This document shows, piece after piece, positions 6,984 to 30,587 of a DNA stretch of 64,000 nt; within the stretch, counting starts at the first letter, position 1; each line of letters begins with the position of its first letter. Position numbers and translations under genes: made by a program. Source of the DNA: Candidatus Saccharimonadia bacterium (lineage in GTDB: Bacteria > Patescibacteriota > Saccharimonadia > UBA4664); NCBI GenBank assembly GCA_041743505.1, contig JBGTMQ010000020.1, positions 81,099 to 145,098 of the forward strand. Reading direction: 5' to 3'. The notes below the pieces were generated by a model. It was not told the origin of the DNA. It saw only the letters and a program-made list of their open reading frames with translations, and searched no databases.

Positions 6984-7003
6984 ACCCGTCCTGAAAAATC
7001 AAT

Positions 7004-7664: not shown

Positions 7665-7702
7665 CGCCGCGCCCGGTCTCCACTCAGGAGAGGAACCCTA
7701 GC

Positions 7703-8589: not shown

Positions 8590-8638
8590 CCACCAGACCC
8601 CCAAAAACTTTAATAGTTGGCGGGGGTATTTTCTTTTA

Positions 8639-8666
8639 TTGCAATTACAAAGTTTTGTGGTATAAT
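8639..8666 (+). promoter_or_regulatory. sigma70-like promoter TTGCAA-16-TATAAT
   Basis: Near-consensus hexamers upstream of the CPBP protease gene, preceded by a T-rich terminator-like region at about 8596-8636. Confidence 0.55.
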
Positions 8667-8725
8667 AAACAATGCACCTTAATTAACCACATTCCCTTGG
8701 ATCCCACCACTGATTGGGGCGCTTT

Positions 8726-9502
8726 ATGGCAGGCACCATTAGGCGGCGTTACGGCTTGCCCATGGCAAGTACCGCTGGCATCTTCGAATTGTTCCTAGGA
8801 TCACTCGTCGTGGCGGGCTTCCTTTGGCTAGTCGCCCGCTCCTGGATGGAACTACCGTTCGACGCCCCCTGGCAAATTCGTGGTAGCATGACCGACGGCC
8901 TGGGCGATGTCTGGTTTATCTTCGTCTGGGGTACAGGCATCACGTTCTTGGTAGGGTTTCTTCAAATACTGGCGCGTCAGCCCCGGGACGAGGAGCCGGC
9001 CGAGATATTCCTCGTTGGATTATGGAAGAGCCTCAACGCCGGACTGTTCGAGGAAATGATTTTCCGGTGGCTGATGTTCATGTCCGTCATGGTGCTCCTC
9101 CAATTCCTCAACTTCATCACCTTCGGAATCGTCCGCTGGGTGTATGTCGAAGGCTTCATCCCGCTGGCAAACTGGCTGACTCTGGGCGCTCTTAGCCCGC
9201 AACTGCTTGGCGCCGGCTGGGTCCTAGCCGCCGCGGTTGTGATGTGTAACTGGAGATTCCAGACAGGCCATATCTATTTGGGGTGGTTCGGCTGGCTCAA
9301 TTCCTGGTTCCTCGGCATGGTCTTCTTCTGGCTCATGTTTAACTATGGGCTCTGGACCGCTATTGTCGCACACATTCTCTATGACGCTGGAATCTTCACC
9401 GTCGCAGCCATCGTTGCTACCATGCAGCCCCGGTATTCCCGCTACAATTCTATCCGCCAGATCGTTCGGAGTAGCAACCGGAGAAGATACCGGGCCAGCT
9501 GA
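8726..9502 (+). CDS. CPBP-family intramembrane glutamic endopeptidase (CAAX protease / Abi-like)
   Basis: Motifs EEMIFR (EExxxR), RFQTGH (FxxxH) and HILYD (HxxxD) sit within a polytopic membrane protein. Tool start TTG 8714; ATG 8726 preferred. Confidence 0.75.
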   Translation: MAGTIRRRYGLPMASTAGIFELFLGSLVVAGFLWLVARSWMELPFDAPWQIRGSMTDGLGDVWFIFVWGTGITFLVGFLQILARQPRDEEPAEIFLVGLWKSLNAGLFEEMIFRWLMFMSVMVLLQFLNFITFGIVRWVYVEGFIPLANWLTLGALSPQLLGAGWVLAAAVVMCNWRFQTGHIYLGWFGWLNSWFLGMVFFWLMFNYGLWTAIVAHILYDAGIFTVAAIVATMQPRYSRYNSIRQIVRSSNRRRYRAS

Positions 9503-9550
9503 TCGCTCTCCTGTCATCACCCTTCACTCGCGCTCAGGTAGGAGTTGAAA

Positions 9551-9781
9551 ATGTCCAACACAAGGCATCTGTCCATTGAGTACCGCGGCCGGGAGGTCAC
9601 CAATCCGTACGCCCGCGCCGCCGGCACAGTGGGCATCTTGTTGGCCTGTGTCTGTCTGCCGTTTATTGCGGTCTTGCATCCTTTGATGCTCGTCCTCGGT
9701 CGCCGCGGATTCGTCACGCACGAGTACGACAGTGCCACCACCACGATCACGATTTCAGGGGCCGGCTTCAAGAAGGACTAA
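9551..9781 (+). CDS. small membrane protein (76 aa)
   Basis: AGGAG SD 7 nt upstream of ATG 9551. One TM helix GTVGILLACVCLPFIAVLHPLMLVLG. Directly downstream of the CPBP protease. Confidence 0.45.
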   Translation: MSNTRHLSIEYRGREVTNPYARAAGTVGILLACVCLPFIAVLHPLMLVLGRRGFVTHEYDSATTTITISGAGFKKD

Positions 9782-9806
9782 CCACCAGCAATGTCCCGCC
9801 CGACAG

Positions 9807-9842
9807 CTCTGGGTATCGCAAGATACTCAGAGCATTCTTTTT
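9807..9842 (+). terminator. rho-independent terminator (11-bp stem with G.U wobble, GCAA loop, T-tract)
   Basis: ctctgggtatc-gcaa-gatactcagag followed by cattctttttta. Confidence 0.7.
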
Positions 9843-10020
9843 TAGGCCCTAATACTTGCATTACTTACCACCGACACCATCCCCGGCCATAACTGCAAAA
9901 TTGAGATGGTGCTCGCACCCCTCGCCACCAATGGCCGGCTAGCCATGAAGATTCTGTTTCACCTAGTCCCGCCGCAACCCCAGGCAACCCAGCCTGGGGT
10001 TCTACTTTCTCTGCCAAGGG

Positions 10021-10120
10021 GACTGAACTGAGGGCAGTACACAATTTGTCAGCACCGAATAAAAGCTGCGCCAAGCCAATACATGAAAGACTCAAACACC
10101 TTACTGCCCTCAGTTCAGTA
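10021..10120 (+). repeat. E3: 100-bp paired-palindrome element (arms 10021-10039 and 10102-10120, core ctgcgCCAAGCCA 10066-10078)
   Basis: Left arm gactgaactgagggcagta and right arm tactgccctcagttcagta are perfect inverted repeats. Spacers are 26 and 23 nt. Lies upstream of pgk. Confidence 0.85.
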
Positions 10121-10215
10121 GGTAGTGCCACGGAATTGTCCTCAGGTGAGCGAGGCCCGGGACCAAACATCAGCCATTATACCCGCCCACATTAGAAGAA
10201 TTCCCAGATTTCGCC

Positions 10216-10221
10216 TACAAT
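10216..10221 (+). promoter_or_regulatory. -10 box TACAAT 7 nt upstream of pgk ATG (probable leaderless transcript)
   Basis: Same geometry (TACAAT, 6-7 nt, ATG) is seen at alaS 47047-47052 and at CDS 41390. Confidence 0.4.
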
Positions 10222-10228
10222 AAAAACC

Positions 10229-12194: not shown

Positions 12195-12294
12195 GGTCGT
12201 GATACGCCTTCCGTATATGAATCAATTATATAGCGAAATGTTTATTTATTTTGGGTCATCAAGCCCCCGGCACCGCCATTTCAATGTGAATACC

Positions 12295-12411
12295 TACTGC
12301 CCTCAGGGCAGTAATTCGGGGCCTTCAAAGCGCGTATCCAATTTTGGCTCTGTATAGGATATAAAACACTCATTCCGTAGTAAAATACACAACACTGCCC
12401 TCAGTTCAGTA
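12295..12411 (-). repeat. E4: 117-bp variant of the paired-palindrome element (arms 12295-12313 and 12393-12411, reverse-oriented core tggctctgtatag 12345-12357)
   Basis: Left arm tactgccctcagggcagta (palindromic) and right arm cactgccctcagttcagta. Core is the reverse complement of the family core; spacers are longer (31 and 35 nt). Confidence 0.75.
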
Positions 12412-16859: not shown

Positions 16860-19094
16860 TTGATTGTGCATCCCTTACTCTCAGATCTCAATGAACCCCA
16901 ACGCCTAGCCGCCGAAACTACCGACGGCCCGGTCCTCATTCTAGCCGGCGCCGGCTCGGGCAAAACCAAGGCCCTAACCCATCGCATCGCCTACCTGGTG
17001 GCCGAAAAACACGTCCGGCCGCTCAACATCCTGGCTGTCACCTTCACCAACAAAGCCGCCGGCGAAATGCGCGGCCGCGTCCTCTCACTCCTCGGCCTCG
17101 ACTCAACCAACCGCTCCTATTTCCCCTACATCGGCACCTTCCACTCTGTATCTCTGCGCCTACTCCGCCGCGAAGCCACCGGCATCGGCCTACCCTCTAA
17201 CTTCCTCATCTTTGATGCGGCCGACTCCCAGTCCGCGATCAAACGCGCTATGCGCCAAGCCAATATCGATGAAAAACAATTTACCCCCAACCTCATCCAT
17301 AACCTTATCTCCAGTGCCAAGAACGAACTGGTCGACGCCGCTCAATATGCCAAATTAGCCCAAGGTAAAGCCCAGGATGCGGCCGCCAAAGTCTACCCCG
17401 TTTACCAAGCCATTCTCAAGGACGCCGGCGCCCTCGACTTTGACGATCTCATCTTCCAAACCGTCCGCATGTTCCGCAAATACCCGGACATACTGGCCAA
17501 ATACCAGCAACAATTCGCCTACATCATGGTCGACGAGTACCAGGACACCAACCACGCCCAATACCAACTCACCAAACTCCTGGCCTCAGGCCATCGCAAC
17601 CTCTGCGTCGTGGGGGACGACTGGCAGAGTATTTATTCCTGGCGCGGCGCTAACTTCCAAAACATCCTCGATTTTGAGAAAGACTACCCCGAAGCTCAAA
17701 TCGTTAAATTAGAACAAAATTACCGCTCAACCCGCAACATCCTCGATGCCGCTCACGCCATCATCGCCAAAAACCGCGTCCGCTCCGACAAAAAGCTCTG
17801 GACCGAAGCGGCTGAAGGTATGGGCATCGGCACCGTCAATGTCTACAACGAAGTCCAAGAAGGGGAGTGGATTGTCCGCCAAATCCAGGAGCTAGCTGTC
17901 ACCGACAAACGCGAGCTCTACGATTTTGCCGTCCTCTACCGGACCAACGCCCAGTCCCGCTCTCTAGAAGAGGCTTTTTTGCGCTACAACCTGCCGTACA
18001 AAATTGTCGGCGGCACCCGGTTCTACGAGCGCCGCGAAATTAAGGACGCCCTGGCCTACCTGCGCTTCGTCTACCAACCCGACGATGTCGTTAGCTTCGG
18101 CCGCATCATCAACCTACCACCCCGGGGCCTCGGCGACGTCAGCTTGGCCCGGCTCGAACAATGGCAGCGCGCCCAAGGCCTCGGCCTCATGGCCGCCTTC
18201 CGCCGCGCAGGCGATGCTCCCGGCCTCCAAACCCGGGCCGTCAACGCCCTCAAACAATTCGCCCTGCTCATCGACGGCCTCCGCGCCGAAGCCACCAAAC
18301 TCCCAGCCGGCCCGCTCCTCGATCTCATCCTCAAACGCTCCGGCTACCTCCAATACCTTGATGACGGCTCCGTCACGGCCGCCGACCGCATCGAAAACGT
18401 CAAGGAGCTCCTCAGCGTGGCCGAAACCTACAACGAGCTCACCCTTGAAGGTTTTCTCGAAGAAATCGCCCTCATCTCCGACATCGACAACTACTCGCAA
18501 GAATCCAACGCCGTCACTCTCATGACCCTCCACGCCGCCAAAGGCCTGGAGTTCCCGGTGGTCTTCATCCCCGGCATGGAAGAAGGTATTTTCCCGCACT
18601 CCCGCTCCCTGTTCGACGGTGACCAAATGGAAGAAGAGCGCCGCCTCTGCTACGTCGGCATGACCCGGGCCAAAGAGCGCCTGTTCCTCATTTATGCCAA
18701 CTCACGCCTGCTCTACGGTGGCACTAACCACAACCCACCCTCGCGCTTCATCACCGAAATTCCGCCCGGCCTGCAATCCGAAGGCAGCGAGTGGGGTACG
18801 GCCGCCCGGGCCGGCCGCTACGGCGGGGGAGCAGCGCCCCATGGCGCCGGCGCCGGCAGCTGGAATGTACCCACTATGCCCGCCGCCGACCTGGCTGCCA
18901 CCGCCCGCGAAGCCGACCGCCATCGCGAAACCATGCTTGGCCTTGACCTCAAACCCGGCGACCGCATCGAGCACACCAAGTTCGGTGAAGGCATCGTCTC
19001 CGACATTAACGGCGACGAAGTCACGGCCGCTTTCACCGGCGTTGGCGCCAAACGCCTATCTCTCTCCTTCGCCCCCATCCGCAAACTTGATTAG
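16860..19094 (+). CDS. uvrD: ATP-dependent DNA helicase UvrD/PcrA family
   Basis: Walker A AGAGSGKT plus helicase motifs I-VI across the full length; 744 aa. Non-ATG start (TTG 16860 or GTG 16866). Confidence 0.9.
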   Translation: MIVHPLLSDLNEPQRLAAETTDGPVLILAGAGSGKTKALTHRIAYLVAEKHVRPLNILAVTFTNKAAGEMRGRVLSLLGLDSTNRSYFPYIGTFHSVSLRLLRREATGIGLPSNFLIFDAADSQSAIKRAMRQANIDEKQFTPNLIHNLISSAKNELVDAAQYAKLAQGKAQDAAAKVYPVYQAILKDAGALDFDDLIFQTVRMFRKYPDILAKYQQQFAYIMVDEYQDTNHAQYQLTKLLASGHRNLCVVGDDWQSIYSWRGANFQNILDFEKDYPEAQIVKLEQNYRSTRNILDAAHAIIAKNRVRSDKKLWTEAAEGMGIGTVNVYNEVQEGEWIVRQIQELAVTDKRELYDFAVLYRTNAQSRSLEEAFLRYNLPYKIVGGTRFYERREIKDALAYLRFVYQPDDVVSFGRIINLPPRGLGDVSLARLEQWQRAQGLGLMAAFRRAGDAPGLQTRAVNALKQFALLIDGLRAEATKLPAGPLLDLILKRSGYLQYLDDGSVTAADRIENVKELLSVAETYNELTLEGFLEEIALISDIDNYSQESNAVTLMTLHAAKGLEFPVVFIPGMEEGIFPHSRSLFDGDQMEEERRLCYVGMTRAKERLFLIYANSRLLYGGTNHNPPSRFITEIPPGLQSEGSEWGTAARAGRYGGGAAPHGAGAGSWNVPTMPAADLAATAREADRHRETMLGLDLKPGDRIEHTKFGEGIVSDINGDEVTAAFTGVGAKRLSLSFAPIRKLD
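19073..19092 (+). repeat. 20-bp exact direct repeat CCCCATCCGCAAACTTGATT (copy 1, in-frame 3' end of uvrD)
   Basis: Identical 20-mer at 22775-22794, where it forms the 3' end of the C39-like peptidase gene. Both genes end with the peptide PIRKLD. Confidence 0.8.
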
Positions 19095-19114
19095 ACCACT
19101 TAACTGGAATTCAC

Positions 19115-19669
19115 ATGCCTAACATTGAACTCGAATATCGCGCCCTCGTCAACGAGGCAGAATATCACAAGCTCATAGCCTTCCTCGATGGCAACGCCAC
19201 AGATCTCGGCGAGGATGACAAAAATGTTTTCTTCTTTATTCTTCCCGGCAAGCTCTTAAAAGTCGTTGATAACCAGTCGACCAACTCGGCCAAAATTGTC
19301 CTGAAGCTCAATCGCATTGGCCAAGGCAGTGACTTCGAAGAAATTGAAATACCCATTGACCCGGATCAAGTCGAAAAATCCGTCCACATGTTTAAATCAC
19401 TTGGCTTTACCGAAGTACAGCAATCATTCCAAAAACGTCACAATTATAAATTTAAAGGTGTGGAGCTAGCGGTAAAATACAGCGAAAATTGGCAATATCA
19501 TGTCGAGTTGGAGATTCTTCTCTCCGACCGCGAGCAGCAGGCTGAGGCCGAAAAGCGAATTCATGCCGTGGCCGCAGAACTGGGGTTAAAGATTATGACG
19601 GACGATGAACTCAAAGAACTTACTGCCAAAATCGACGCGGAGCACCGTTCTAAGACTGATCACATTTAA
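19115..19669 (+). CDS. CYTH-domain protein (CyaB / thiamine-triphosphatase-like)
   Basis: N-terminal IELEYRAL pattern and overall acidic beta-barrel-like profile resemble CYTH. Moderate confidence from sequence alone. Confidence 0.5.
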   Translation: MPNIELEYRALVNEAEYHKLIAFLDGNATDLGEDDKNVFFFILPGKLLKVVDNQSTNSAKIVLKLNRIGQGSDFEEIEIPIDPDQVEKSVHMFKSLGFTEVQQSFQKRHNYKFKGVELAVKYSENWQYHVELEILLSDREQQAEAEKRIHAVAAELGLKIMTDDELKELTAKIDAEHRSKTDHI

Positions 19670-19676
19670 GCTTATG

Positions 19677-19691
19677 TTTGCAATTTGCAAA
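19677..19691. promoter_or_regulatory. 15-bp palindrome TTTGCAA-t-TTGCAAA
   Basis: Perfect 7-bp arms, located just after the CYTH gene stop and about 130 bp upstream of the next CDS. Confidence 0.3.
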
Positions 19692-19820
19692 TAGCTGCTT
19701 ATACTGTGGAATAGCTGAAAGCCCCTCTTTCGTTCAGCATACCTATTCGGGCACCATTGACATCCAACTCGGGCTACACAGACCTCAATCCCAAAACCTA
19801 CGGAAGATTGGAATTGACCA

Positions 19821-20393
19821 ATGTCTGTTTTGGCTTTCCCGCAAGTGCAAGCTTCACCCATGTTTGACAACCTGAACCTGCTTGGTCGCCGTGCAGTCAA
19901 GCTCGTGCTGACAGTTGCGACTGTCTTCGCAATGGTACTCGGTCTTAGTCTCACCAGTAGTGCCGGTACCGCTAACGCTGCGACCGGCGATAGTGCTCCG
20001 GTCCATTTTGGACTTGGTCGGGCCTACTGGGGTGAAAATGGCATGGAGATCAGGCTTACTCGTGAGGGTACAGAATTGGCCTACCTAGCCTCTACCGTTG
20101 GCGGAGGAGCAGGAATTAAAGGTACACAGCTTGGTGCCGAGGCCTTGGCAAAGTTTGGTCCGATTATGAGCCATATCATACGATCTGGCGGCATTGATCC
20201 GACCAAAGACGGGGTTAAGGTCGTGGGTGCTGTCGCTGGTGCCACCGGCTTGTGGGCAGCCGAAAAGGTGATGATTCCTGACGGTATGTGCCTCGGAATT
20301 ACTTGGGCCCCTGAGATAGTGGCACCTAGCTCGTACATCTCCTACCCCTCTAACCCGCATCAATCAGCTTCCTGGCTGGAGTCTTGCTCGTAG
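19821..20393 (+). CDS. secreted hypothetical protein
   Basis: Signal-peptide-like segment ending ANA. The real start may be ATG 19860. Confidence 0.45.
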   Translation: MSVLAFPQVQASPMFDNLNLLGRRAVKLVLTVATVFAMVLGLSLTSSAGTANAATGDSAPVHFGLGRAYWGENGMEIRLTREGTELAYLASTVGGGAGIKGTQLGAEALAKFGPIMSHIIRSGGIDPTKDGVKVVGAVAGATGLWAAEKVMIPDGMCLGITWAPEIVAPSSYISYPSNPHQSASWLESCS

Positions 20394-20467
20394 CATGACC
20401 GGTCACCGGCCTGGGGTATGTCTCGTCGAGACGCACCCCAGGCCCACAAAACTGTTATTATTCACGT

Positions 20468-20866
20468 ATGAAACCATCAGTATCAAATTTTAAGATTCAG
20501 CTTGCTTGGCACCACTTCCTTTACTGGCTCTTTTGGATAACACTGGGAGCAGCAGCTACCGGCGATGCAATTTTGGGAGGCGGCTCTTTTGCGGTTGTGG
20601 CCTATCTTTTCAGAGATTGGCGTAACGCCCCGTACAAAGATCCGGTCGCTGATGATGCCGGACCAGGCAAGCGATTGATGACAGTAGTGTATTATCTTTT
20701 GGGCTGCGTGGCTATTCGCCTTGCTCTATTTCTCCTACAAGACAAGCCACTGTCTACAGATATATGGTGGTTCGCGGTGTTTGCTGCGGCGGCTACCACG
20801 TTATACTTCACCAAGCCCCTACCTAGACCGGAGGTGCAGCAGCAAAAAGATAGCAAAGCAACTTAA
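20468..20866 (+). CDS. small membrane protein, paralog 1 of a tandem pair
   Basis: 4 TM helices. Shares QLAW..FL.WL, W(R)D.PY and C-terminal FTKPLPRP with the next CDS. Confidence 0.5.
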   Translation: MKPSVSNFKIQLAWHHFLYWLFWITLGAAATGDAILGGGSFAVVAYLFRDWRNAPYKDPVADDAGPGKRLMTVVYYLLGCVAIRLALFLLQDKPLSTDIWWFAVFAAAATTLYFTKPLPRPEVQQQKDSKAT

Positions 20867-20877
20867 GGGTACGGGCA

Positions 20878-21264
20878 ATGAGAATACTCAGGCAACTTTT
20901 ATGGCTTCAACTTGCATGGAGGTATTTCCTTGCCTGGCTCTTGCCGGCAACTTTTTGGACTGCGCTTACTGATAGTGTAATCGTGGGAGCTGGTCTAGGA
21001 ATAGTCTTTTTCTTCATTGGTAGCTGGCGCGATACGCCATACGAAGGCATCCTCGGCAAAAGCTCCAGAAGTAGCAGTAGCCAATGGAGGATTGCAATAT
21101 TCTTCATCTCAGCATGGCTCATCATTTATTTAATTCATGCTCTTATCGATCCTAAGGACTCTCATGTCAGCGTAATTTGGTTTGTCATATTTGTTATCAC
21201 CACAATCGTTGCTAGCTTTACGAAACCTCTACCGAGGCCAGCCGGGGCCAAACCCCAAGCATAG
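20878..21264 (+). CDS. small membrane protein, paralog 2 of a tandem pair
   Basis: Same motifs as CDS 20468-20866. Confidence 0.5.
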   Translation: MRILRQLLWLQLAWRYFLAWLLPATFWTALTDSVIVGAGLGIVFFFIGSWRDTPYEGILGKSSRSSSSQWRIAIFFISAWLIIYLIHALIDPKDSHVSVIWFVIFVITTIVASFTKPLPRPAGAKPQA

Positions 21265-21317
21265 CCTGTGTAAGTCAAGGTGTGGTGAGCGAGTCCAGCC
21301 TTCCAACAACTGTCACT

Positions 21318-21797
21318 ATGAACAATACCGTCTCAGTAAAAAAACTAGCAAATGGACTTACCATTGTAAGCCCCAAAACTCATCCCCACGTTGAGTCAAT
21401 CTACCTTGAACTGGTTGTCAGGGTTGGCGCACGAAATGATTCAGATGAGTTTTTTGGCTTGGCCCATTTCGTTGAGCATGTGGTAGCGGAAATCGCCGAA
21501 GCTAGCATTCGGCGTCATGAATGGATCAATGACTATATGCTGGACACCTTTGATGCCGTGATCGATCAGGAGAAGACAACCTATTATGTCGGGGTAGCAA
21601 AAAATGATTCAGAGCGAGCCCTCCAGCTGGTCCTATCGGTTCTGCAATCTCCCGTTGTCACGCCAGAAATTATAGAGCGGAACAAAGAAATCGTAATAGA
21701 AGAATTACTCGAAGACCTTGACAGTGATACAACTCAAGCCACCCGGTACTTCGCATCTCAATATCACAAGGACAATACCCTGGGGAGCTACTATTAA
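21318..21797 (+). CDS. M16 (pitrilysin/insulinase) peptidase N-terminal domain only; truncated, possible pseudogene
   Basis: HFVEH (HxxEH zinc motif) and the KKLANGLTIV start are typical of M16. The ORF stops after about 159 aa, whereas M16 enzymes are about 420 aa. No continuation in other frames. Confidence 0.5.
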   Translation: MNNTVSVKKLANGLTIVSPKTHPHVESIYLELVVRVGARNDSDEFFGLAHFVEHVVAEIAEASIRRHEWINDYMLDTFDAVIDQEKTTYYVGVAKNDSERALQLVLSVLQSPVVTPEIIERNKEIVIEELLEDLDSDTTQATRYFASQYHKDNTLGSYY

Positions 21798-21862
21798 GAA
21801 TGCTGCTTCAAGACCCACCGTCCACTCCGCGCAGGCGTATGGCAGCCATCTTCGATGTAACC

Positions 21863-21902
21863 GCCCCATTGGCAACTCCATCGCCAGTGGGGCTTTGTCA
21901 TG
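21863..21902 (+). repeat. 40-bp hairpin element, copy 1 (CCCCATTGGC-n9-GCCAGTGGGG + CTTTGTCATG)
   Basis: 37/40 identical to 24222-24261. The stem has a T.G pair that is a wobble only on the + strand RNA. Confidence 0.7.
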
Positions 21903-21970
21903 ACCCGACTCATCCGTAAACTTGCTTGGTTTAAGTGCCTCTCTAAGCGGACTTCCCTCCAGTCAAATAC

Positions 21971-22016
21971 CCCACTATGTAGTTAAACTACGTACTAAGT
22001 TTGACTACATAGTGGG
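21971..22016. promoter_or_regulatory. perfect 13-bp inverted repeat CCCACTATGTAGT-n20-ACTACATAGTGGG
   Basis: Ends 9 nt before the ATG of the C39-like peptidase. Could be an operator or a 5'-UTR hairpin. Confidence 0.45.
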
Positions 22017-22025
22017 CCAACACAT

Positions 22026-22796
22026 ATGACTTCTCGGTCTGATACACTAAAGTTCATGCAGCCAATCGAATACCAAATCAAGCCCATCAAGCAAAACGCC
22101 AGTGAATGTATGCAAACCGCTGCCACGCAGGTCATTTCCCACTATGACCCATCCATAACCGTCCAAAGAGTTATCGAAGAAGTACCAGTTTATGTTGAAA
22201 ATGGCAACAAAATTGGCACCTCTCAAGGGCATATGGCCGCCTACTTTGCGCGGGCGGGTTACAAAACAACCATGTATATTTTTGATGTCGAGTTGTTTGA
22301 CCGGAGCTGGGTAGACCTAAATCCTCATGAAGTTCTAGCCGGCTTACGGGAGCGTCAGAAGTATATTCCAGCTAATTCATGGCTAGCCAAATACCATCAT
22401 ATCCTCGTCGATGGTTTTGAATTATATGTAAAAGAAGGTGGCAATTTCGCCTTCCCGCAGCTAAGCGCGAAATTATTACGAGATTTACTCGACAGCGGCC
22501 CGTACCTCATCCTATTGAGCTCAACCTACCTTAACCAGGCAGCAAAACAACGCTACAATCAAGAGTCCGACACGTTTGTAGCTGACCCCATTCAGGGACG
22601 TTCGCTTACCCATGCCGTAACCTGTGCGGGCTACAAGGACGGCCAGTTTCTTATCGTCGATCCAGACCCACCTCGAGACACTAGTCCACACCGGTGGATA
22701 GCACAAGAACACCTCATCGCCTCAATTATGGTTGCCCAAACAGAATCAGATAATTACTTGATCAAAATAGACAACCCCATCCGCAAACTTGATTGA
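22026..22796 (+). CDS. C39-like / papain-fold cysteine peptidase domain protein
   Basis: QNASECMQTAATQVISHY (Cys box) and THAVTCAGYKDGQFLIVDP (His box) match the Peptidase_C39_2-like pattern. Ends with the repeated PIRKLD tail. Confidence 0.55.
   Translation: MTSRSDTLKFMQPIEYQIKPIKQNASECMQTAATQVISHYDPSITVQRVIEEVPVYVENGNKIGTSQGHMAAYFARAGYKTTMYIFDVELFDRSWVDLNPHEVLAGLRERQKYIPANSWLAKYHHILVDGFELYVKEGGNFAFPQLSAKLLRDLLDSGPYLILLSSTYLNQAAKQRYNQESDTFVADPIQGRSLTHAVTCAGYKDGQFLIVDPDPPRDTSPHRWIAQEHLIASIMVAQTESDNYLIKIDNPIRKLD
22775..22794 (+). repeat. 20-bp exact direct repeat CCCCATCCGCAAACTTGATT (copy 2)
   Basis: See copy 1 at 19073-19092. Confidence 0.8.
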
Positions 22797-22859
22797 CGGC
22801 TCGAACCATCGTATAGTACGTAATCCCAGGACAACGATCTCGTATCGGAGGCTCTTGCC

Positions 22860-23378
22860 ATGCGTCATTTCGTCTCTGGCAGCACCTATCGTGAGCTAAT
22901 GCGGCGACTCGGCCGGCTTCAGTCCGAACTTGCCAATCCCGACGGCAGCCGCATCGATCCCGTATTACTCATCCAGACTTTGGACGTCTTGTTATCGGGC
23001 AAAGTATTCGAGCTAACAATTACTCCTAAGCCGGTAGAGGATGAATTTCTTTACCTGAGCTTACCCCCGGAAGTCTTAACGACCGACATTCAGATGCTGG
23101 GGCTCAAAACCACTACTTACAATATCCTGAAGCGTCACGGCATTGATACTATTGAGGATTTGCTTGAGCGGTCGGCGGCCGATTTACTAGATATAGCCTA
23201 TTTCGGCCCCAGGCTGCTGGAGGAGCTAAACCGCGCGCTTGCTGTACATGGCTGGCATCTATCCCGTCACGACGATCCTGATCTGGCGCCGCCGTCAGGC
23301 GACGAGTGGATAACATTTAACCGCTATAGCGGCGCACCGCGACGCGTTCTCAAGAGTCGTCTGCACAGCCGGAAGTAA
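22860..23378 (+). CDS. RpoA alpha-CTD-like (HhH) domain protein, paralog 1
   Basis: LYLSLPPEVLTTDIQMLGLKTTTYNILKRHGIDTIEDLLERSAADLLDIAYFGPRLLEELNRAL aligns with the RNA polymerase alpha C-terminal domain pattern L.LS.R..N.L....I.T..DL......EL......G..S..E. Followed by GWHLSRH...APPSGDEW. CGGAGG SD upstream. Confidence 0.6.
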   Translation: MRHFVSGSTYRELMRRLGRLQSELANPDGSRIDPVLLIQTLDVLLSGKVFELTITPKPVEDEFLYLSLPPEVLTTDIQMLGLKTTTYNILKRHGIDTIEDLLERSAADLLDIAYFGPRLLEELNRALAVHGWHLSRHDDPDLAPPSGDEWITFNRYSGAPRRVLKSRLHSRK

Positions 23379-23398
23379 TTCACCGAGAGGACACGCCA

Positions 23399-24181
23399 GT
23401 GGCCCGCTATGCTACCGCTACACCCAACCAGCGGCTTGAAGCGAGGCGTCTATGGATCGAAATCTATGCCGAGCTAACTAACCCTCAGGGCAGCTCACTC
23501 GATCCTCAGATGGTTCTCGAGGCGCTACAGTCGATTCAGTCACTGATTCGTTCAAGCGATAACCATGAGTCAGCCAAGTATCTTGACAAGGCCGCAGCTG
23601 AGGTCGGGCCGCTCGAAAATCCTGACGATTTTCTTTACTTAACCCTGCCCCGCGAGGTTCTCGATCAACCAGTCAACACGCTTAAGCTAACGGAGCGGCC
23701 ACTCAATTGCTTGCACCGGGAGAATATTAGTACCGTCGATGACCTTCTGCAGCGTTCTGGGCCCGAGCTGTTAGAGATACGAAACTTTGGAGCAGTATCT
23801 TTAAGAGAAGTAACAACCCGGCTTGATGAACGGGGTTGGCACTTGTCCACCCATGGCCAGGGATTAGCTCCTCCGCCGGGTGACCAGTGGGTTAAGTACC
23901 AAGACTGGCTCTTTCTCCGCAGCCGTTTCATCCGGCTACCCGTTGATAAGATCCTCCGCTGGAATTCGCAGATCATCGCCTCGCTCAAGGAGCTTGGAAT
24001 TGTAACAGTCGGTCAGTTGGTCTCGTTGACGGACGTCGAAGTGCTACGGCTGCCCTGGGACGAAAAGCCGGCCACCTACGTCTGGAAGTTCGAGAAAATA
24101 ACCGGCTTCGATGCGCTCGAGATAATTAATGCGTCACTTCAAGACTGCGGCCTGTCCCTGACCCAAGAAACAGATCGGTAA
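23399..24181 (+). CDS. RpoA alpha-CTD-like domain protein, paralog 2 (two tandem HhH repeats)
   Basis: Same alpha-CTD-like motif and GWHLSTH...APPPGDQW as paralog 1, plus a second degenerate repeat. N-terminus is also paralogous to 22860. GTG start with GAGAGG SD. Confidence 0.6.
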   Translation: MARYATATPNQRLEARRLWIEIYAELTNPQGSSLDPQMVLEALQSIQSLIRSSDNHESAKYLDKAAAEVGPLENPDDFLYLTLPREVLDQPVNTLKLTERPLNCLHRENISTVDDLLQRSGPELLEIRNFGAVSLREVTTRLDERGWHLSTHGQGLAPPPGDQWVKYQDWLFLRSRFIRLPVDKILRWNSQIIASLKELGIVTVGQLVSLTDVEVLRLPWDEKPATYVWKFEKITGFDALEIINASLQDCGLSLTQETDR

Positions 24182-24186
24182 GTCTA

Positions 24187-24221
24187 AGGTCCGGGATTCT
24201 TTCCCGGACCTTATTTTTTTT
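24187..24221 (+). terminator. rho-independent terminator (aggtccggg-attcttt-cccggacct + T8)
   Basis: Perfect 9-bp stem and long T-tract, immediately after CDS 23399-24181. Confidence 0.8.
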
Positions 24222-24261
24222 GCCCCATTGGCAACCCCACCGCCAGTGGGGCTCTGTCATG
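24222..24261 (+). repeat. 40-bp hairpin element, copy 2
   Basis: See 21863-21902. Directly follows the terminator and lies 45 nt upstream of CDS 24306. Confidence 0.7.
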
Positions 24262-24305
24262 CCAAACTCAAATTAAGGCTCTGAGCATCTGTTATCATTA
24301 GCACA

Positions 24306-25157
24306 ATGACTAGAGAACAATCCCCTCAAGATCCCGGTGCCGAACAGGGTATGTTCGCCGACACCCGTAAAGCCACCGAGGAGCTTAGGCAGCTAGCAGA
24401 ACAAGGCATTGAAGCCAGGCGGCAGATAGGCCGCCTTACCGAGCAGGATGAGGTCGAAATCGCCACCCACACCAGGCAAGCCAGACAAGAGCTAACCGGG
24501 GAAAGTGAGCGCGACATAACATTAAAGTCTGCAACCGAGATTGCGGATAAGCTCAAAGAAAAAGATAGTGAGCTATCAGATAGCATTTATGAAGCCCTGG
24601 CCGAGACGTACGGTACGGCAGGCGATGTAGACCGCGGGCTTGCCACCATCGATCAGATCGAGGACCATGTTTCGCGCATCGAGGGCCTAATCCGCCTGGC
24701 CAAAGTCACCCGGTCGGACCGCGTCCACGATGAAATCAAGCACTCTGCGATGAACGAAGAGGGTAAAGCCGTTAACATTGATGTCGCGAAGAAGGTCTAT
24801 CTGAAGCTCCGGGTTGAAGAAAATCTCGCCGAAAGAGCTGACTCATTTGCAATGTTAGTTGGCGACGCCGCCGAGAAAGACCCCAACTACGCCGACGTCG
24901 CAAATGCCCGGGAAGTGGTAGAGCGAGAGACCAGGGTGCCACCTAAGGCACCCAGTACCAGTCTCGAAACGCAGGCTAGAATACGCGCCCAGGCTGCCCA
25001 CCGTACTACCGGCCTTGCAGCCCTCGACGAGTATCGCGCCCAGGCTGCCCGCCTCGGACCCGGCCGTGCCCAGGACTTGATGTTTACGGTCTATACGCTA
25101 GCCACCTTAGAGCTCGCCAGGAAGCAGCATCCCGAGACAGACAAGGCCGCAGCTTAA
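24306..25157 (+). CDS. hypothetical helical protein, tandem paralog A
   Basis: 283 aa. Shares TEEL.Q, HxRQAR.EL..ESE, YGT.GD, QI..HV.R.EGL.RL and a terminal AAA with the next CDS. The upstream tatcattag motif is also duplicated. Confidence 0.5.
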   Translation: MTREQSPQDPGAEQGMFADTRKATEELRQLAEQGIEARRQIGRLTEQDEVEIATHTRQARQELTGESERDITLKSATEIADKLKEKDSELSDSIYEALAETYGTAGDVDRGLATIDQIEDHVSRIEGLIRLAKVTRSDRVHDEIKHSAMNEEGKAVNIDVAKKVYLKLRVEENLAERADSFAMLVGDAAEKDPNYADVANAREVVERETRVPPKAPSTSLETQARIRAQAAHRTTGLAALDEYRAQAARLGPGRAQDLMFTVYTLATLELARKQHPETDKAAA

Positions 25158-25188
25158 TACCCTGTTCCAGTCTGCTATCATTAGTGGT

Positions 25189-26028
25189 ATGAGCGCAGAA
25201 CACGATATCGGCGGCCGCCACAGACAGGAAAATGATTTTGCTGGTGCCCGCGAAACTACCGAAGAACTAATGCGGCAGATTACTGAAGCCCACGAATTAG
25301 CTGCGCAAAACCAGCCTGCAGCCGACGAGATTGAACTAGCCGGTCACATAAGGCAGGCCCGAATGGAGTTAAATAACGAGAGCGAGGATACCGTCATCCT
25401 GCTATCGGCCAGCGAAACTGCCCGCGACCTTCATGACCGCAGGCTGGCTGATGATGTATATATGTCATTAGCCGGTGCCTATGGTACGCGCGGTGACATC
25501 GCCGGCGGCCTTGATGCCGTCAATCAAATTCAAGAACACGTCTTGCGGCTCGAAGGACTGGTCCGACTATCCGAAATCACGGGCGATGAGTCAGTTAAAC
25601 GTCAGCTCGCCGAAGCGGTCGAAAACAAGGCCGGTCACGCGGTTCACGTCGAGGTAGCCAGAGAAGTATTTTACAAATTTCGAATGGAGGACCGCGACCT
25701 CGATAAAGCCCAGAATTTTTCCAAGCTGGTCGCTAAATCCGCCGAAAATGCATCCAATTACCCTAAAGCTGTCGATACCAACGCGCGGGTAGCCTTGATG
25801 GCCATAATAGAACCCGACTCACCGCAACCCAGCCTTGATGCTCAGGCCAAAACCCTAGTTGACCAAGCAAATCTCACCGCCGACCCCCTCAAATATCTCG
25901 ATCAATACTGGAAACAAGCCCAAGATCAACCACCCGGCCCAGACCAGGAAAAGATGTTGGCAACCTACACCATAGCCACAGTCGAGTTAGCCAACGATGC
26001 GCTACGCCCAGATCAAGCTGCCGCCTAG
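25189..26028 (+). CDS. hypothetical helical protein, tandem paralog B
   Basis: 279 aa paralog of CDS 24306-25157. Confidence 0.5.
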   Translation: MSAEHDIGGRHRQENDFAGARETTEELMRQITEAHELAAQNQPAADEIELAGHIRQARMELNNESEDTVILLSASETARDLHDRRLADDVYMSLAGAYGTRGDIAGGLDAVNQIQEHVLRLEGLVRLSEITGDESVKRQLAEAVENKAGHAVHVEVAREVFYKFRMEDRDLDKAQNFSKLVAKSAENASNYPKAVDTNARVALMAIIEPDSPQPSLDAQAKTLVDQANLTADPLKYLDQYWKQAQDQPPGPDQEKMLATYTIATVELANDALRPDQAAA

Positions 26029-26030
26029 AA

Positions 26031-26059
26031 TTGACTCTAAAGCAAAGATATGCTATAAT
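26031..26059 (+). promoter_or_regulatory. sigma70-like promoter TTGACT-17-TATAAT
   Basis: Consensus-like promoter upstream of small CDS 26145. Confidence 0.5.
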
Positions 26060-26144
26060 TAATAATAGACGTATGCAGTGAGCACTGCTCCCCGCAGCAC
26101 GCACCAACTCGCATAATCCGCCAACCATCGAATGGACGGACACT

Positions 26145-26399
26145 ATGAACGAATACCTCGTCGTACGCGACGGCCAAGGTCGGCCTGTCTCGCGGGAGAT
26201 GCTCGTCGGTCTCGATCCATTTGGCAGTATCCTCGTGCTGACCAATCCGAAAGGCGGTCAAATCGATCTGCCCATAGAGACCGGGCCCAACTGGCAACAC
26301 GACTTCTCCGGCATTACCGGGGATCAAGGCGAACCATTTACGCTCGTCGAGCGCGCCGGCCAGTGGTTCTTGCAAACCCCCCTCCCGCTCAACTCCTGA
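26145..26399 (+). CDS. small hypothetical protein (84 aa)
   Basis: ORF downstream of a good promoter, weak SD. Confidence 0.4.
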   Translation: MNEYLVVRDGQGRPVSREMLVGLDPFGSILVLTNPKGGQIDLPIETGPNWQHDFSGITGDQGEPFTLVERAGQWFLQTPLPLNS

Positions 26400-26522
26400 G
26401 CAAACATCCGGTGCCGGCACTTCCGCTGGCGCCGGATTAATATTTTTGACTCAATGCAATTAAAAATACCCTGGGAACATGCGCGAATGGTTATCGCGTT
26501 GTTCCCAGGATAAACTAGTTAA

Positions 26523-28343
26523 CTAGAATCCGGGCAGATACCTGCCGAGGTGCGGATAGATATACGACCCCAGCTCCCGGTGGTATAGAGTGAGCATCTG
26601 CTCTTTGGTGATAGCATCAGTTCCAGCCCGCACAAACACCACCTGAAGCAGATAGTCACCGGTCAGCACGAGCGTCTTGGCTCCGGACAAGCTGCCTTCG
26701 GGATCGTCGGCGTCAAACTCCCACACCATATCGCCGGCGTCTCGTTGAGCAGGCGTGATGGGTTTGAAAGTAAGCGGCGGCGAGCCGAGCCCATAATGCC
26801 CGACGCACGGCTTTGGAAGATTATCCAAGTAGGCGCGTACGCCTTCCTTCCGGCCAGGGGCAAGCTTGATCAGATGCATGTAAATCTTGCCTATCATCTG
26901 ACCGGGCTCCTCCAAAACATAAACGCCACCGGCCAGCGGAACATCGCCGTATGCGTCCTGTGGCAAGAGAGGCCAATAATCTCCGCATTCATCGGGCAGC
27001 AACAAGTGCCTGCCGATAGTGACCATAGAGCGCTGATCCGCCTGGCCTGGCGGTGGAGGCGGTAGCATTGCCTGTTGCGAGGGCGCCACCTCTAGCACCG
27101 GGGCCGGACGGTGGCAAAAGCCTTCTCTAAGGCCCTTGAAACAAGTTAACATCCGGTTCGCTTGTGCTTGAAGCAGGTACGAATTCGGGTGCGCGCTCCA
27201 CTCCTGGCTCGTCGGGATGACCCGGTTAATCCAGCGCTTTCCGGGCTCCGGGCCGGCGACATCCTCACACATCGTGTGGTCGCCGTCTTGGAGAATATCA
27301 GAGGCATCAACGTATGTTGCACCAACCTCACGAACAGCTTCCTCGGTAATCTTATTTGCCTGATCGGCGATACTGTTGAGCCACTTCATCTTCTCCTTAC
27401 TGATTCTCGCAAGAACACCAAGGCCGCATTCCGCTGGCATCTTCTCGGTAGTCGGAAATGGCCGGGGATAGCCGGACACGAGCAATTGGCCACCCTCGGC
27501 CAGATTTGCCTGCACGGAGCGGTAGGTCGAAACCAGCCTTTTCCTGATATCCGAAGCCTTGTCTTCGATGAGCACATCCCGGTCGTCCGAGCAGTCGACC
27601 CAGAAGAAGTATGGCTTCAAATATCTCGAGTAAATATCTGTGACACAATCCTTGACGATATCAGCAAAACCAATATCGTTGCCGGTCATCGTGATTGTCA
27701 CCAGATTGGCCCGGCGGGTCGTGTCCAGCTTCTTGGGGTGGCCGGTCTTAGAATCGGACGCCCATTGCGGCGGGTTAGCCCGTTCTTCATGCTCACGCTT
27801 ATTGAACGGTCCCCAGGTCTCATCCCAGGATTGTTCGTCCTCAAAATGCTTAGAGGTAGCTCCACTGCATGCACGATGGTCCAAGGTCCAGGCCGGGTTC
27901 TCGGCTTCTAGCGCCTCCCATAGCTTAACCGGATAGGCATTGGCCGACCGGTGGCAGTGGTTGCCCTCGATAGCAGTACCGGTAACGAAATCCTGAAAGT
28001 TCGTACCGCAGCTGTCAGTGACATTATCCGGCGCCCCTTCCCCCGCAGCGAACGAGTCTCCGAGAGCCGCATACACTAGGGTATCCTGGTCGGAGCCAAG
28101 ATTCACGCCAGCTGGGTAGCCCCCGGGCCGCTCACGCGACCCATGTCTTCTCGGCGCCTCCCCAGTTAGATCTTCCAGACCTGGCACAGGTGGGCATACG
28201 CCCAAATGGACAGGACCGGTCGGCATGATCGGCCAGGGTGACCGGTCTGGTTCATCGGCGAAAGCAATTCCCGGGATAGCAAATAGCAAAATACCGGTCA
28301 AGAAAGTAACCAGCACCCTGCGAGCCGTACACAGACTCATCAA
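26523..28343 (-). CDS. secreted SGNH/GDSL-family hydrolase with C-terminal extension
   Basis: Signal peptide (LLFAIPGIAFA), block I GDSFAAGEG, and a later SAHPN (block V-like His). 606 aa. Confidence 0.65.
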   Translation of the reverse strand: MMSLCTARRVLVTFLTGILLFAIPGIAFADEPDRSPWPIMPTGPVHLGVCPPVPGLEDLTGEAPRRHGSRERPGGYPAGVNLGSDQDTLVYAALGDSFAAGEGAPDNVTDSCGTNFQDFVTGTAIEGNHCHRSANAYPVKLWEALEAENPAWTLDHRACSGATSKHFEDEQSWDETWGPFNKREHEERANPPQWASDSKTGHPKKLDTTRRANLVTITMTGNDIGFADIVKDCVTDIYSRYLKPYFFWVDCSDDRDVLIEDKASDIRKRLVSTYRSVQANLAEGGQLLVSGYPRPFPTTEKMPAECGLGVLARISKEKMKWLNSIADQANKITEEAVREVGATYVDASDILQDGDHTMCEDVAGPEPGKRWINRVIPTSQEWSAHPNSYLLQAQANRMLTCFKGLREGFCHRPAPVLEVAPSQQAMLPPPPPGQADQRSMVTIGRHLLLPDECGDYWPLLPQDAYGDVPLAGGVYVLEEPGQMIGKIYMHLIKLAPGRKEGVRAYLDNLPKPCVGHYGLGSPPLTFKPITPAQRDAGDMVWEFDADDPEGSLSGAKTLVLTGDYLLQVVFVRAGTDAITKEQMLTLYHRELGSYIYPHLGRYLPGF

Positions 28344-28588
28344 TATCTCCCCTCACACTCGCTGTGCAGATTCTCAATGAACAAACAAAGCTGGCCAGCA
28401 ACCGGTACAGCTTGCATACGACCTATGCTCGCTAACAAGCAAGGCATAAACCGATCACACTCTAACATAGTATTAACAAAATGTCAACCAAATAACCGGC
28501 AACTCCTTCATCTGTAAAACTTGATTAAGTCCAACGATGCTGGTATAAGAAACGCAGTTCATAGTCTGGTCCGATCGAGGGAGCCGTC

Positions 28589-29173
28589 ATGCCTAATGAT
28601 TTTCTCTTCCTGACGCTACCAACCGACGAGCTTGAACGCCCGCTCAAAACACTGGAACTGCCGACCCGAGCGTATCACTGCCTGATGCGCGAGGAAGATA
28701 TCAGCACCGTAGGGGATTTGCTGGCCTGCTCAGAGTCTGAGCTAATCGACATTCGCATCATGGGGTCTAGTTTGGTTGACCAAGTCAAGATCAAGCTGGC
28801 AAAGCGCGGCTGGCATCTGTCGCCTCACGACCAGAGCACCGAACCGCCGCCGGGGGATTCATGGGTCCAGGTGCCACATGGGCAATACCTAAACAAGCAG
28901 CGCCAGGTCCTCCAGAGCCGGGTGCGTAGAATATCGCTTGATCGCTACAGCTGCCCCTACCCCGGCTACCCTAACACCCCAGTGGATGCTATCCGCTCGG
29001 TCATTAACCTGTCGACGCTCGGTGATCTGGCCGCCCTTACCGAAGTTAAGGTCCGGGCGGCCGTCGAAGAGGCCACCCGTAAGCCTCACTTCGAGCAGTT
29101 CGACATCGCCAAGTCCGTAGACTGGATCAAGCAGAAATTGACCGAAGTCGGGCTGAAATTGGCCCAACCGTAA
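28589..29173 (+). CDS. RpoA alpha-CTD-like domain protein, paralog 3
   Basis: DFLFLTLPTDELERPLKTLELPTRAYHCLMREEDISTVGDLLACSESELIDIRIMGSSL plus GWHLSPH...EPPPGDSW. Second HhH-like repeat. GAGGGA SD. Confidence 0.6.
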   Translation: MPNDFLFLTLPTDELERPLKTLELPTRAYHCLMREEDISTVGDLLACSESELIDIRIMGSSLVDQVKIKLAKRGWHLSPHDQSTEPPPGDSWVQVPHGQYLNKQRQVLQSRVRRISLDRYSCPYPGYPNTPVDAIRSVINLSTLGDLAALTEVKVRAAVEEATRKPHFEQFDIAKSVDWIKQKLTEVGLKLAQP

Positions 29174-29291
29174 CCGGCGCACCAGCCCGCAATAAGGGCC
29201 CGGGAATCAACTCCCCGGGCCCTTTGACATACTCAATCGGTTCTTGGATACTAAATGAGTTCTGCCCGACCCATGGTTTGGAGTAACCGCC

Positions 29292-30425
29292 ATGAAGCTC
29301 CGCAAGTTACTTGAAAGCAAGCTCACCCCGGCGCCCGAAACTAAACCCGATCCGGTAACCGTGCGCACTCTACGCCATACCGGACGCAAACTGGTGCTCA
29401 GAGACCTTTTTGCCACCCTGGTGGTTGAAGTGGGTGGCGAAGACATCGACATCACAGCCCGAGGCAGGACTTCGCGGCTCGCCAAGCTGCAGGTCTCTGA
29501 AAAGAACGATACTGTCACGCTCCGCGGGGTTAAACCCCAGGACGCCCTATCGCTTCACCTCGATAGCACCGGCTTGTTTAATAGCCGCTGGAGCCGCTGG
29601 CTGTTAAGACGGCTCGATGTCGTAGTATTGGCCCCGGAAGATAGCATCGGGCTGACTATTCGCGTGCCTGAAGGCACCGGGCTGGATATCAATGGCGTCG
29701 ACGGCAATATCATGATTGGTGACACCCAGGCCGCCCTAACGCTGGGTGTGGCATACAACCAGATCGCCACTGTCGGTCGCGTAAGTGATGCCGAAATCGA
29801 AGCCGGTTCCAGCTCGCGAGTCACTGTCGCCGGCGTACATGGCAGCCTACACATCGGCGCTGAATACTCAAGTCAGGTGACGGTCCGGGACGGCGATATT
29901 GTCGGTCTCACTGTTAAGAGTGATTCTAGTTCAGTAGTGCACGTACTCGGCCGCATTCACGATGCGGATGTCGGGGCGGCCTATAACAGCTCGGTCAAGC
30001 TGGGTATGGTGTCCGGCCGGCTGGATCTGGCGGGTGACTCTTCCTCCGACCTCACAGTGCTTGGGGGAACGGCCAACCAGTTGGAGGTAAAAGCCGCTTA
30101 CAACAGTGTTGTGAAATACGGCGGCACTGCCCGCGAAGTCACGCTCAAGCTTGACAGCAGCGCCGAAGCCTGGGTCGCCAACGTCACCGCCAGTTTAACG
30201 GTGAACGCCGACTACAACTCGCGCCTGACTATCGGCGATGGTAATAGTGAGGGTGTAATCCCGATAGTCGACATCAGGGCCGGCAGCTCCACCGAAATCA
30301 GGATTCGGGCCGTGGTCCAACGCGGCCGGATTTCCGCTGATTACAACGCCCTGGTGCTGGCCCGTGATTATGGTAACCAGGTGAAGATCCGCCAAGACGA
30401 CTCAGCCCAGGTCGGTACCTTTTAA
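29292..30425 (+). CDS. beta-strand repeat protein (DUF4097 / putative adhesin-like)
   Basis: Many repeated short beta-strand units (V.V.G..G.L.V, AYNS..K) typical of beta-helix / DUF4097-type proteins. 377 aa. Confidence 0.5.
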   Translation: MKLRKLLESKLTPAPETKPDPVTVRTLRHTGRKLVLRDLFATLVVEVGGEDIDITARGRTSRLAKLQVSEKNDTVTLRGVKPQDALSLHLDSTGLFNSRWSRWLLRRLDVVVLAPEDSIGLTIRVPEGTGLDINGVDGNIMIGDTQAALTLGVAYNQIATVGRVSDAEIEAGSSSRVTVAGVHGSLHIGAEYSSQVTVRDGDIVGLTVKSDSSSVVHVLGRIHDADVGAAYNSSVKLGMVSGRLDLAGDSSSDLTVLGGTANQLEVKAAYNSVVKYGGTAREVTLKLDSSAEAWVANVTASLTVNADYNSRLTIGDGNSEGVIPIVDIRAGSSTEIRIRAVVQRGRISADYNALVLARDYGNQVKIRQDDSAQVGTF

Positions 30426-30587
30426 CCGCCCGCTTACTGCGTGCTGCCCTCCGGCCTCGTGGTCGGTGGGCATTTTTTTGTTATTAATTATTGAATACAA
30501 AAGTTATCCACATTGACGCTTATCGGACAGAAGGGGTACCATTATTTTGTTCTTCAAAAACGAAAAGCTTAAAAATAAACGTCCCTC

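Follow-up and report, generated by a model that had tools for sequence, protein, structure and literature searches.

A foreign 3.7-kb islet bounded by a duplicated uvrD terminus in a Saccharimonadia bacterium

Cis-mobilizable elements (CIMEs) are islands that are flanked by attachment (att) sites, lack an integrase and depend for their mobilisation on that of a related element, as described for the integrative and conjugative elements (ICEs) ICESt1/ICESt3 of Streptococcus thermophilus. The integrative mobile elements exploiting Xer (IMEX) integrate at the dif site via the host recombinases XerC/D, while casposons generate target-site duplications of 14-15 bp; a duplication of 20 bp is longer than those usually left by transposons and insertion sequences (IS). 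Integrative elements have been described to duplicate their att sites, to insert more than once at a given site and to leave degenerate remnants (bioRxiv 10.1101/2020.12.28.424599), and Patescibacteria commonly carry genomic islands (PMC12455944). Here we analyse 64,000 nucleotides of a Candidatus Saccharimonadia bacterium (assembly GCA_041743505.1, contig JBGTMQ010000020.1, positions 81,099 to 145,098 of the forward strand; hereafter the window), in which a 3.68-kb block of low-GC genes lies between two exact 20-bp copies of the 3′ end of the helicase gene uvrD. The coordinates of all features are collected in Table 1.

The repeat unit, CCCCATCCGCAAACTTGATT, occurs exactly twice in the window, both times on the forward strand, and the pair is the longest exact direct repeat of the 64 kb and the only one of at least 20 nt. 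A search allowing up to three mismatches returned no further copy in the window, 100 dinucleotide shuffles contained no match, and by our own arithmetic about 0.002 same-strand pairs of 20 nt are expected by chance in 64 kb. The identity between the copies is confined to the 20 nt and breaks off abruptly on both sides. Both copies lie in frame at the end of a gene, the first in uvrD (stop codon TAG) and the second in the open reading frame (ORF) at 22026-22796 (stop codon TGA), and both products end in PIRKLD. Exact matching and ORF translations therefore uphold the initial annotation, which had described this repeat with its shared protein ending and judged it very unlikely to be a chance event. 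That annotation would have been weakened by a widespread motif unrelated to these gene ends; outside the pair, no copy of the 20-mer was found in the window, in the flanks of relatives or in viral contigs.

Which of the two copies is native? In UvrD the PcrA/UvrD tudor domain extends to residue 742, and the ending APIRKLD is shared with the UvrD proteins of the related loci L091, L092 and L099 (79-82% identity), which encode it with other, synonymous codons (L091: ACCCATTCGTAAACTTGATT; L099: GCCTATTCGCAAGCTTGACT). The ORF that ends in the second copy encodes a member of a C39-like cysteine peptidase family, and none of 60 homologues (240-241 aa, 93% query coverage, up to 80% identity) carries the PIRKLD tail, their ends falling about six residues earlier. 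In an alignment of 20 sequences the homologues stop at ...NYLIKIDK, while the window protein runs on as ...IKIDN-PIRKLD; the corresponding DNA of the homologues ends in ...AAA TAA or ...AAC CCA TGA. Since the homologues end without PIRKLD, the C39-like gene must have exchanged its own final codon and stop for a copy of the uvrD terminus. Copying rather than convergence is indicated because the two copies are identical at every synonymous position, and no donor uvrD piece was imported, because the codon usage of uvrD stays host-like to its last codons. On these comparisons, PIRKLD in the first copy is the native UvrD end and the second copy is derived from uvrD. The six-residue tail on the C39-like protein is presumably neutral, and for annotation purposes the end of this ORF is an insertion artefact.

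The DNA between the copies is clearly distinct in composition. Its GC content is 0.483 (19095-22774), compared to 0.571 and 0.562 in the two backbone flanks, and with a tetranucleotide distance of 0.294 (mean 0.18, sd 0.027) it is the most deviant 3.7 kb of the window, the peak window starting at 19001. The six genes of the insert have a GC content of 0.45-0.55 and a GC content at third codon positions (GC3) of 0.46-0.53, whereas uvrD has values of 0.60 and 0.74; the GC and codon skew for which the initial annotation had asked is thus present, and the break in composition coincides with the positions of the repeats. The closest homologues of the C39-like protein come from Saccharibacteria contigs with 41-46% GC, where the gene neighbourhoods are unrelated and uvrD is never adjacent, while the genomes nearest by UvrD (79-82% identity) have 56-61% GC. 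Among the loci fetched, the C39-like gene is the only cargo gene with homologues elsewhere, always in differing contexts. We conclude that the insert is foreign, and it was probably acquired horizontally from lower-GC Saccharibacteria.

The comparison with relatives points in the same direction. Their backbone order is pyk, pgk, tpiA, two small genes, uvrD, 0-2 lineage-specific small genes, an rpf-like DUF348-G5-transglycosylase gene, a ColicinV-trypsin gene and ksgA. The closest relatives by UvrD lack the 3.7-kb segment; between uvrD and rpf they carry 0-2 small genes unrelated to it. The uvrD-rpf interval measures 11.5 kb in the window (19095-30587) and 0.6-1.5 kb in the relatives, with unrelated content: a single 194-aa gene in L091 and L092, a 123-aa gene and an amino-acid kinase gene in L093 and L098, and no gene in L099. 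None of these genes is present in the 11.5 kb of the window. The backbone resumes with the leader of the rpf-like gene, which aligns from about 30489 with a score of 204 (21 ± 3 for the comparison set). Because its content differs between lineages, the uvrD-rpf interval is a variable hotspot, of which the repeat-bounded 3.7 kb is the newest, unameliorated layer; the remainder (22795-30587) has a host-like tetranucleotide distance of 0.164. The duplication itself is specific to this genome.

We propose that the arrangement arose by a Campbell-type insertion. A 3.68-kb foreign block would have entered precisely at the uvrD stop codon through a crossover within the last 20 bp of the gene, leaving the 20-mer on both sides of the insert as attL/attR-like repeats. 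The first copy keeps UvrD intact, and the second would be the displaced copy of the target, still located before the gene that formerly followed uvrD; its in-frame fusion to the last cargo gene would have provided the C39-like peptidase with its borrowed PIRKLD tail. The catalyst would have been a site-specific recombinase that was lost or is encoded elsewhere and acted in trans, and the islet may now be a fixed, non-autonomous remnant that is read through from uvrD. The data show an insertion that duplicated 20 bp of its target and left uvrD intact; this geometry is the signature of a single crossover in the 20-mer, as made by site-specific integrases, and we lean with modest confidence towards this origin, with the recombinase lost or supplied in trans. 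In silico excision leaves PIRKLD followed by TGA; the predicted empty site reads uvrD-20mer-GACGGCTCG with the junction TCTCCTTCGCCCCCATCCGCAAACTTGATTGACGGCTCGAACCATCG, and the predicted circle junction is CAAAATAGACAACCCCATCCGCAAACTTGATTAGACCACTTAACTGGAATTCACATG. Transcription of the cargo is probably by read-through from uvrD, because the CYTH gene starts 20 nt past the uvrD stop codon and no terminator lies between them.

The islet shares several properties with integrase-type islands that occupy the 3′ terminus of tRNA or housekeeping genes, for example the tycheposons of Prochlorococcus (bioRxiv 10.1101/2020.12.28.424599): the repeat is identical to the 3′ terminus of the target gene, this gene is kept intact, the cargo is atypical in composition, the site is a variable hotspot with conserved flanks, and a degenerate repeat of an older event appears to be present. 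Judged by the usual marks of a genomic island, we found flanking direct repeats, one of them being the 3′ end of the target, a preserved reading frame, and atypical composition together with absence from relatives. On the other hand, the islet has no integrase, excisionase or replication module, its target is uvrD, it measures only 3.7 kb and its right end cuts a codon of the cargo.

Several observations weigh against the proposed insertion by a site-specific recombinase. No integrase, serine recombinase or transposase domain was found in ORFs of at least about 140 aa over the whole 64 kb, in agreement with the initial annotation, and Pfam (same ORF limit) and PHROG searches revealed no tyrosine or serine recombinase in or beside the islet. 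Searches with the 20-mer, the hairpin element described below, the C39-like family, the C-terminus of UvrD and the DNA of the island brought up no phage or plasmid relative, and neither an empty site nor a circular junction was found among assembled contigs. At its right end the cargo has lost the final codon and the stop codon of a gene, which has the look of an arbitrary breakpoint and is unusual for a dedicated attP. In addition, in 49 other uvrD loci, five of them from close relatives, the locus's own uvrD end is not repeated downstream even when three mismatches are allowed, so that there is no evidence of routine use of the site. The att/integrase mechanism is thus not demonstrated and the enzyme is not established: of the attL/attR-like target duplication suggested initially, the geometry is supported by the uvrD-derived second copy, the composition and the absence in relatives, and the enzymology is not.

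The junction searches returned just contigs identical to the window, and relatives at up to 82% UvrD identity have other content after uvrD; a metagenome scan with the C-terminal half of UvrD gave four loci, none of them informative. Two proteins of the interval were considered as cryptic integrases and read out as repeat proteins that are not recombinase-like, one of 377 aa resembling a β-helix and one of 283 aa with helical repeats. An origin from a phage or plasmid was rejected for want of sequence matches and of PHROG or PADLOC matches. There are no terminal inverted repeats pairing the ends of the insert, no tRNA, tmRNA, Rfam family or defence signal was detected in the window, and no paper in the full-text library searched links the end of uvrD to integration.

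Could the islet have been captured without any recombinase? Transformed DNA might have been captured at the uvrD end, either where the strands had been broken in a staggered fashion or through microhomology-mediated illegitimate recombination, and fill-in of a single-stranded target of about 20 nt would then account for the duplication. The cargo begins and ends at arbitrary points, 20 nt ahead of the CYTH start codon on the left and within the final codon of the C39-like gene on the right, which would suit such an event, as would the patchwork nature of the block with its truncated M16 gene and the lack of a recombinase in the window. Some C39-like homologues end in ...NP (L084: AAC CCA TGA), so that microhomology of the CCCAT type with GCC CCC ATC may have existed at the right junction. 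Competence genes are, moreover, reportedly prevalent in Patescibacteria (PMC12455944). Against this stand the placement of the insertion exactly where uvrD stays intact and the degenerate second copy of the uvrD end inside the insert, which suggests repeated use of the target and is unexpected of a random break. To our knowledge, homology-facilitated or short-patch illegitimate recombination in bacteria does not usually leave a clean 20-bp target duplication. We regard recombinase-independent capture as a possible but distinctly less probable origin.

The interior of the islet shows that it is itself composite, as indicated by the truncated M16 gene and by a 130-nt piece of host-like GC content (0.57) that follows it. 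The initial annotation had treated the 3.7 kb as a single segment; the repeats do delimit a foreign stretch, but the variable region extends over 11.5 kb and the insert is not of one piece. Within the host-like piece lies a 40-nt hairpin element with an 11-bp stem (21863-21902), of which a second copy with 93% identity is located at 24222-24261 and further copies in L091 (12926-12957) and L092 (10588-10619), where they sit between a variable cassette gene and the rpf promoter. The consensus of the element is GCCCCATTGGC-N9-GCCAGTGGGGC-CTYTGTCATG. It is native to this lineage, because L091 and L092 carry it too, and it could be terminator-like or similar to repetitive extragenic palindromic (REP) sequences.

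Five nucleotides after the first hairpin, on the internal GC boundary, a degenerate copy of the uvrD end is found (21908-21927), which matches the uvrD end of the window at 16 of 20 positions and that of L091 at 17 of 20; its core (21911-21927) matches at 15 of 17. In a local test over 45 nt the score was 26, compared to 12.6 ± 2.3 in shuffles (0 of 500 as high), and the copy is not significant when tested window-wide. This similarity suggests that an earlier insertion had used the same target and left a relic, perhaps in a donor belonging to this lineage. Three related candidates were rejected. The hairpin plus a uvrD-like core is not a general recombination site, as the tails after the second hairpin and the L091 hairpin are not uvrD-like. 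A decayed rpf promoter after the first hairpin was likewise discarded. A "fourth copy" at 28508-28528, considered as the original uvrD end beside the backbone, was dismissed because its similarity is at noise level and because the 194-aa gene at 28589 is not orthologous to the 194-aa gene of L091, being an RpoA-CTD paralogue instead.

It is conceivable, though we think it improbable, that in this Saccharimonadia lineage the uvrD stop codon is a recurrent landing pad at which cassettes consisting only of cargo were captured serially by a recombinase acting in trans, with copies of the uvrD end, with or without a hairpin, marking the borders. If so, this would represent integron- or tycheposon-like accretion in an ultra-small bacterium of the Candidate Phyla Radiation (CPR) without a resident integrase at the site.

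Another possible origin is a local rearrangement within the hotspot: a unit beginning with the uvrD end would have been duplicated in tandem or by ectopic recombination, its content would later have been replaced, and the second copy would have been retained for the -35 box of the gene at 22860. The interval is indeed rich in paralogues and repeated hairpin elements, and the order of hairpin and then uvrD-end-like copy (21863-21927) is that expected at a tandem-duplication or circle junction of a unit that extends from the uvrD end to the hairpin; in L091 the order is uvrD end, gene, hairpin. A promoter-like site, TTGATT-17-TATAGT (9 of 12 matches), begins with the last six nucleotides of the second copy. 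We give little weight to it as a putative promoter of gene 22860, the scan having returned 18 sites with 8.6 expected. Conservation of the terminal uvrD codons as a -35 box was not supported, because the layouts in L099 and L091 fail the scan and just the second copy of the window passes, weakly. The DNA between the exact copies is foreign in composition and has no local duplicate, the identity is limited to 20 nt, and the tails after the other hairpins are not uvrD-like. A local rearrangement is therefore unlikely in our view.

The remaining explanations can be treated briefly. An assembly artefact, in which two populations were joined at a shared short repeat, might be suspected from the metagenomic source and the differing GC content of the insert, but it is very improbable because two Logan assemblies from different runs (L081 and L082; SRR28170470 and SRR28170471) agree, both being 100% identical to the window across both junctions; moreover, both ends of a foreign fragment would have to carry the same 20-mer, and 20 nt is below the k-mer sizes used for final contigs. 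Least credible of all is a chance match or an independent functional motif (a C-terminal signal or a regulatory DNA site), for although both copies end genes in frame and the last hexamer resembles a -35 box, the identity at synonymous positions indicates copying, the tail is missing from the whole C39-like family sample, and the 20-mer has no other occurrence and a negligible chance expectation.

Returning to insertion by a site-specific recombinase, we compared the islet to the integrase-less and cassette-based systems. Like a CIME it is flanked by att-like sites and has no recombinase, and its internal att-like copy might fit accretion by analogy with these elements; it differs in that no cognate ICE or integrase is known for the organism or present in the window. 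With integron cassette arrays it shares co-oriented, tightly packed and apparently promoterless genes after a fixed site and a hairpin at one internal boundary. It differs from them in having no intI and a plain direct repeat instead of attC, and the tails after its other hairpins are not uvrD-like: hairpins occur in the window only at 21863 and 24222, the repeat at 22775 has none, and the combination of hairpin and core is not reproducible. A duplicated piece of the target flanks the insert as in transposons, IS and casposons, but terminal inverted repeats, a transposase and Cas1 are lacking. IMEX are likewise integrase-less and flanked by repeats of a chromosomal site, whereas the 20-mer is not palindromic and lacks the two inverted 11-bp arms around a 6-bp spacer of a dif-like site. 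Nor does it lie at the replication terminus, because the cumulative GC skew keeps one direction over the whole window.

Taken on these comparisons, the locus is an ordinary genomic islet of a well-known kind, small and without an integrase, that sits in a variable hotspot. It does not indicate a new mechanism unless a recombinase acting in trans and recurrent use of the site can be demonstrated. Its value lies in being a case, resolved to the base pair, of accessory-gene gain in a streamlined uncultured Saccharibacterium with an essential repair gene left intact. The uvrD-rpf hotspot should be useful for pangenome work on Patescibacteria.

Table 1. Features of the uvrD-rpf region, in coordinates of the window.
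Feature	Position	Strand	Basis or remark
uvrD/pcrA helicase gene, insertion target	16860-19094	+	Pfam UvrD-helicase, UvrD_C, PcrA_UvrD_tudor
Direct repeat copy 1, attL-like	19073-19092	+	Live uvrD end; followed by AG of stop TAG
Inserted lower-GC block, 3.68 kb, six co-oriented genes	19095-22774	+	Composition; absent from relatives
CYTH-domain protein, cargo	19115-19669	+	PF01928, E 1.7e-8; weak cyaB-like match below cut-off
190-aa protein with N-terminal hydrophobic segment, probably exported, cargo	19821-20393	+	Translation
Two tandem small membrane-protein paralogues	20468-20866, 20878-21264	+	30% mutual identity; hydrophobic
Truncated M16 peptidase gene, N-terminal ~150 residues including HFVEH	21282-21797	+	PF00675 positions 8-135 of 149
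Spacer of host-like GC (0.57) in low-GC insert	21798-21927	+	GC by block; 130 nt
C39-like cysteine peptidase family gene, cargo	22026-22796	+	Peptidase_C39_2 27.0 bits, cut-off 24
Direct repeat copy 2, attR-like	22775-22794	+	Displaced copy of uvrD terminus; followed by GA of stop TGA
Promoter-like TTGATT-17-TATAGT	22789-22817	+	First hexamer is last 6 nt of copy 2; upstream of gene 22860; 9/12 matches
Older host-like part of lineage-specific interval	22860-30425	.	Paralogue families; no counterparts in uvrD-rpf intervals of relatives
rpf-like (DUF348-G5-transglycosylase) gene with conserved leader; backbone resumes	30489-31826	+	70% identity to L091 orthologue; Pfam

Domain searches and translations agree with the gene content first assigned to the segment, namely a CYTH protein, a secreted protein, membrane paralogues, a truncated M16 peptidase and a C39-like peptidase. 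The 190-aa protein had no match in Pfam, NCBIfam, PHROG or PADLOC. The M16 fragment aligns solely with the first ~150 residues of peptidases of 406-531 aa, and no close homologue of it was found. For the C39-like protein the Peptidase_C39_2 match is weak, the total lying over the gathering threshold and no single stretch passing it; Cys-28 and His-196 are invariant across 20 aligned homologues and may be catalytic. Nine nucleotides before the start codon of this gene ends a near-perfect palindrome (21971-22016; arms of 19 nt, 95% complementary, loop of 8 nt), a possible operator or structured leader.

The older part of the interval is, as initially noted and as confirmed by paralogue comparison, an accessory stretch rich in paralogues. 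It contains three standalone RpoA-CTD-like paralogues (22860-23378, 23399-24181 and 28589-29173; 35-39% mutual identity) and two tandem 280-aa paralogues (24306-25157 and 25189-26028) that are 39% identical, have no family match and weakly resemble helical repeat proteins. A GDSL-lipase-like gene (26523-28343) is located on the minus strand. The 377-aa protein encoded at 29292-30425 consists of short repeats (…V.V.G…L.V.AAYNS.V…) that resemble β-helix or polymer-forming proteins, without a family or PDB sequence match.

Regarding uvrD itself, many close Saccharimonadia UvrD/PcrA homologues (P0076, P0087, P0095, P0106, P0109 and others) are about 950-1190 aa long and contain intein domains (PF14890), which the uvrD of the window does not.

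A second enlarged interval lies between pyk and pgk (4636-10228), where 5.6 kb of unannotated ORFs compare with 0.8-4.4 kb of other content in L091, L093 and L099, so that core glycolytic genes here enclose another variable hotspot. Small ORFs with a low GC3 (0.50-0.53) at 36138-36795 and 54476-54751 resemble the insert and may be other acquired islets. Finally, a 17-nt palindromic motif, ACTG(C/A)(C/A)CT(C/G)AG(G/T)(G/T)CAGT, occurs at eight sites (15 strand-matches, 0.17 expected); its exact pattern was not found in the loci of the relatives. The sites form four pairs with a spacing of 81-98 bp, at 2864-2965, 5976-6081, 10019-10120 and 12289-12411, just upstream of pyk (3193), an uncharacterized gene (6213), pgk (10229) and tpiA (12533), respectively, and the motif is a candidate operator of a glycolytic regulon.

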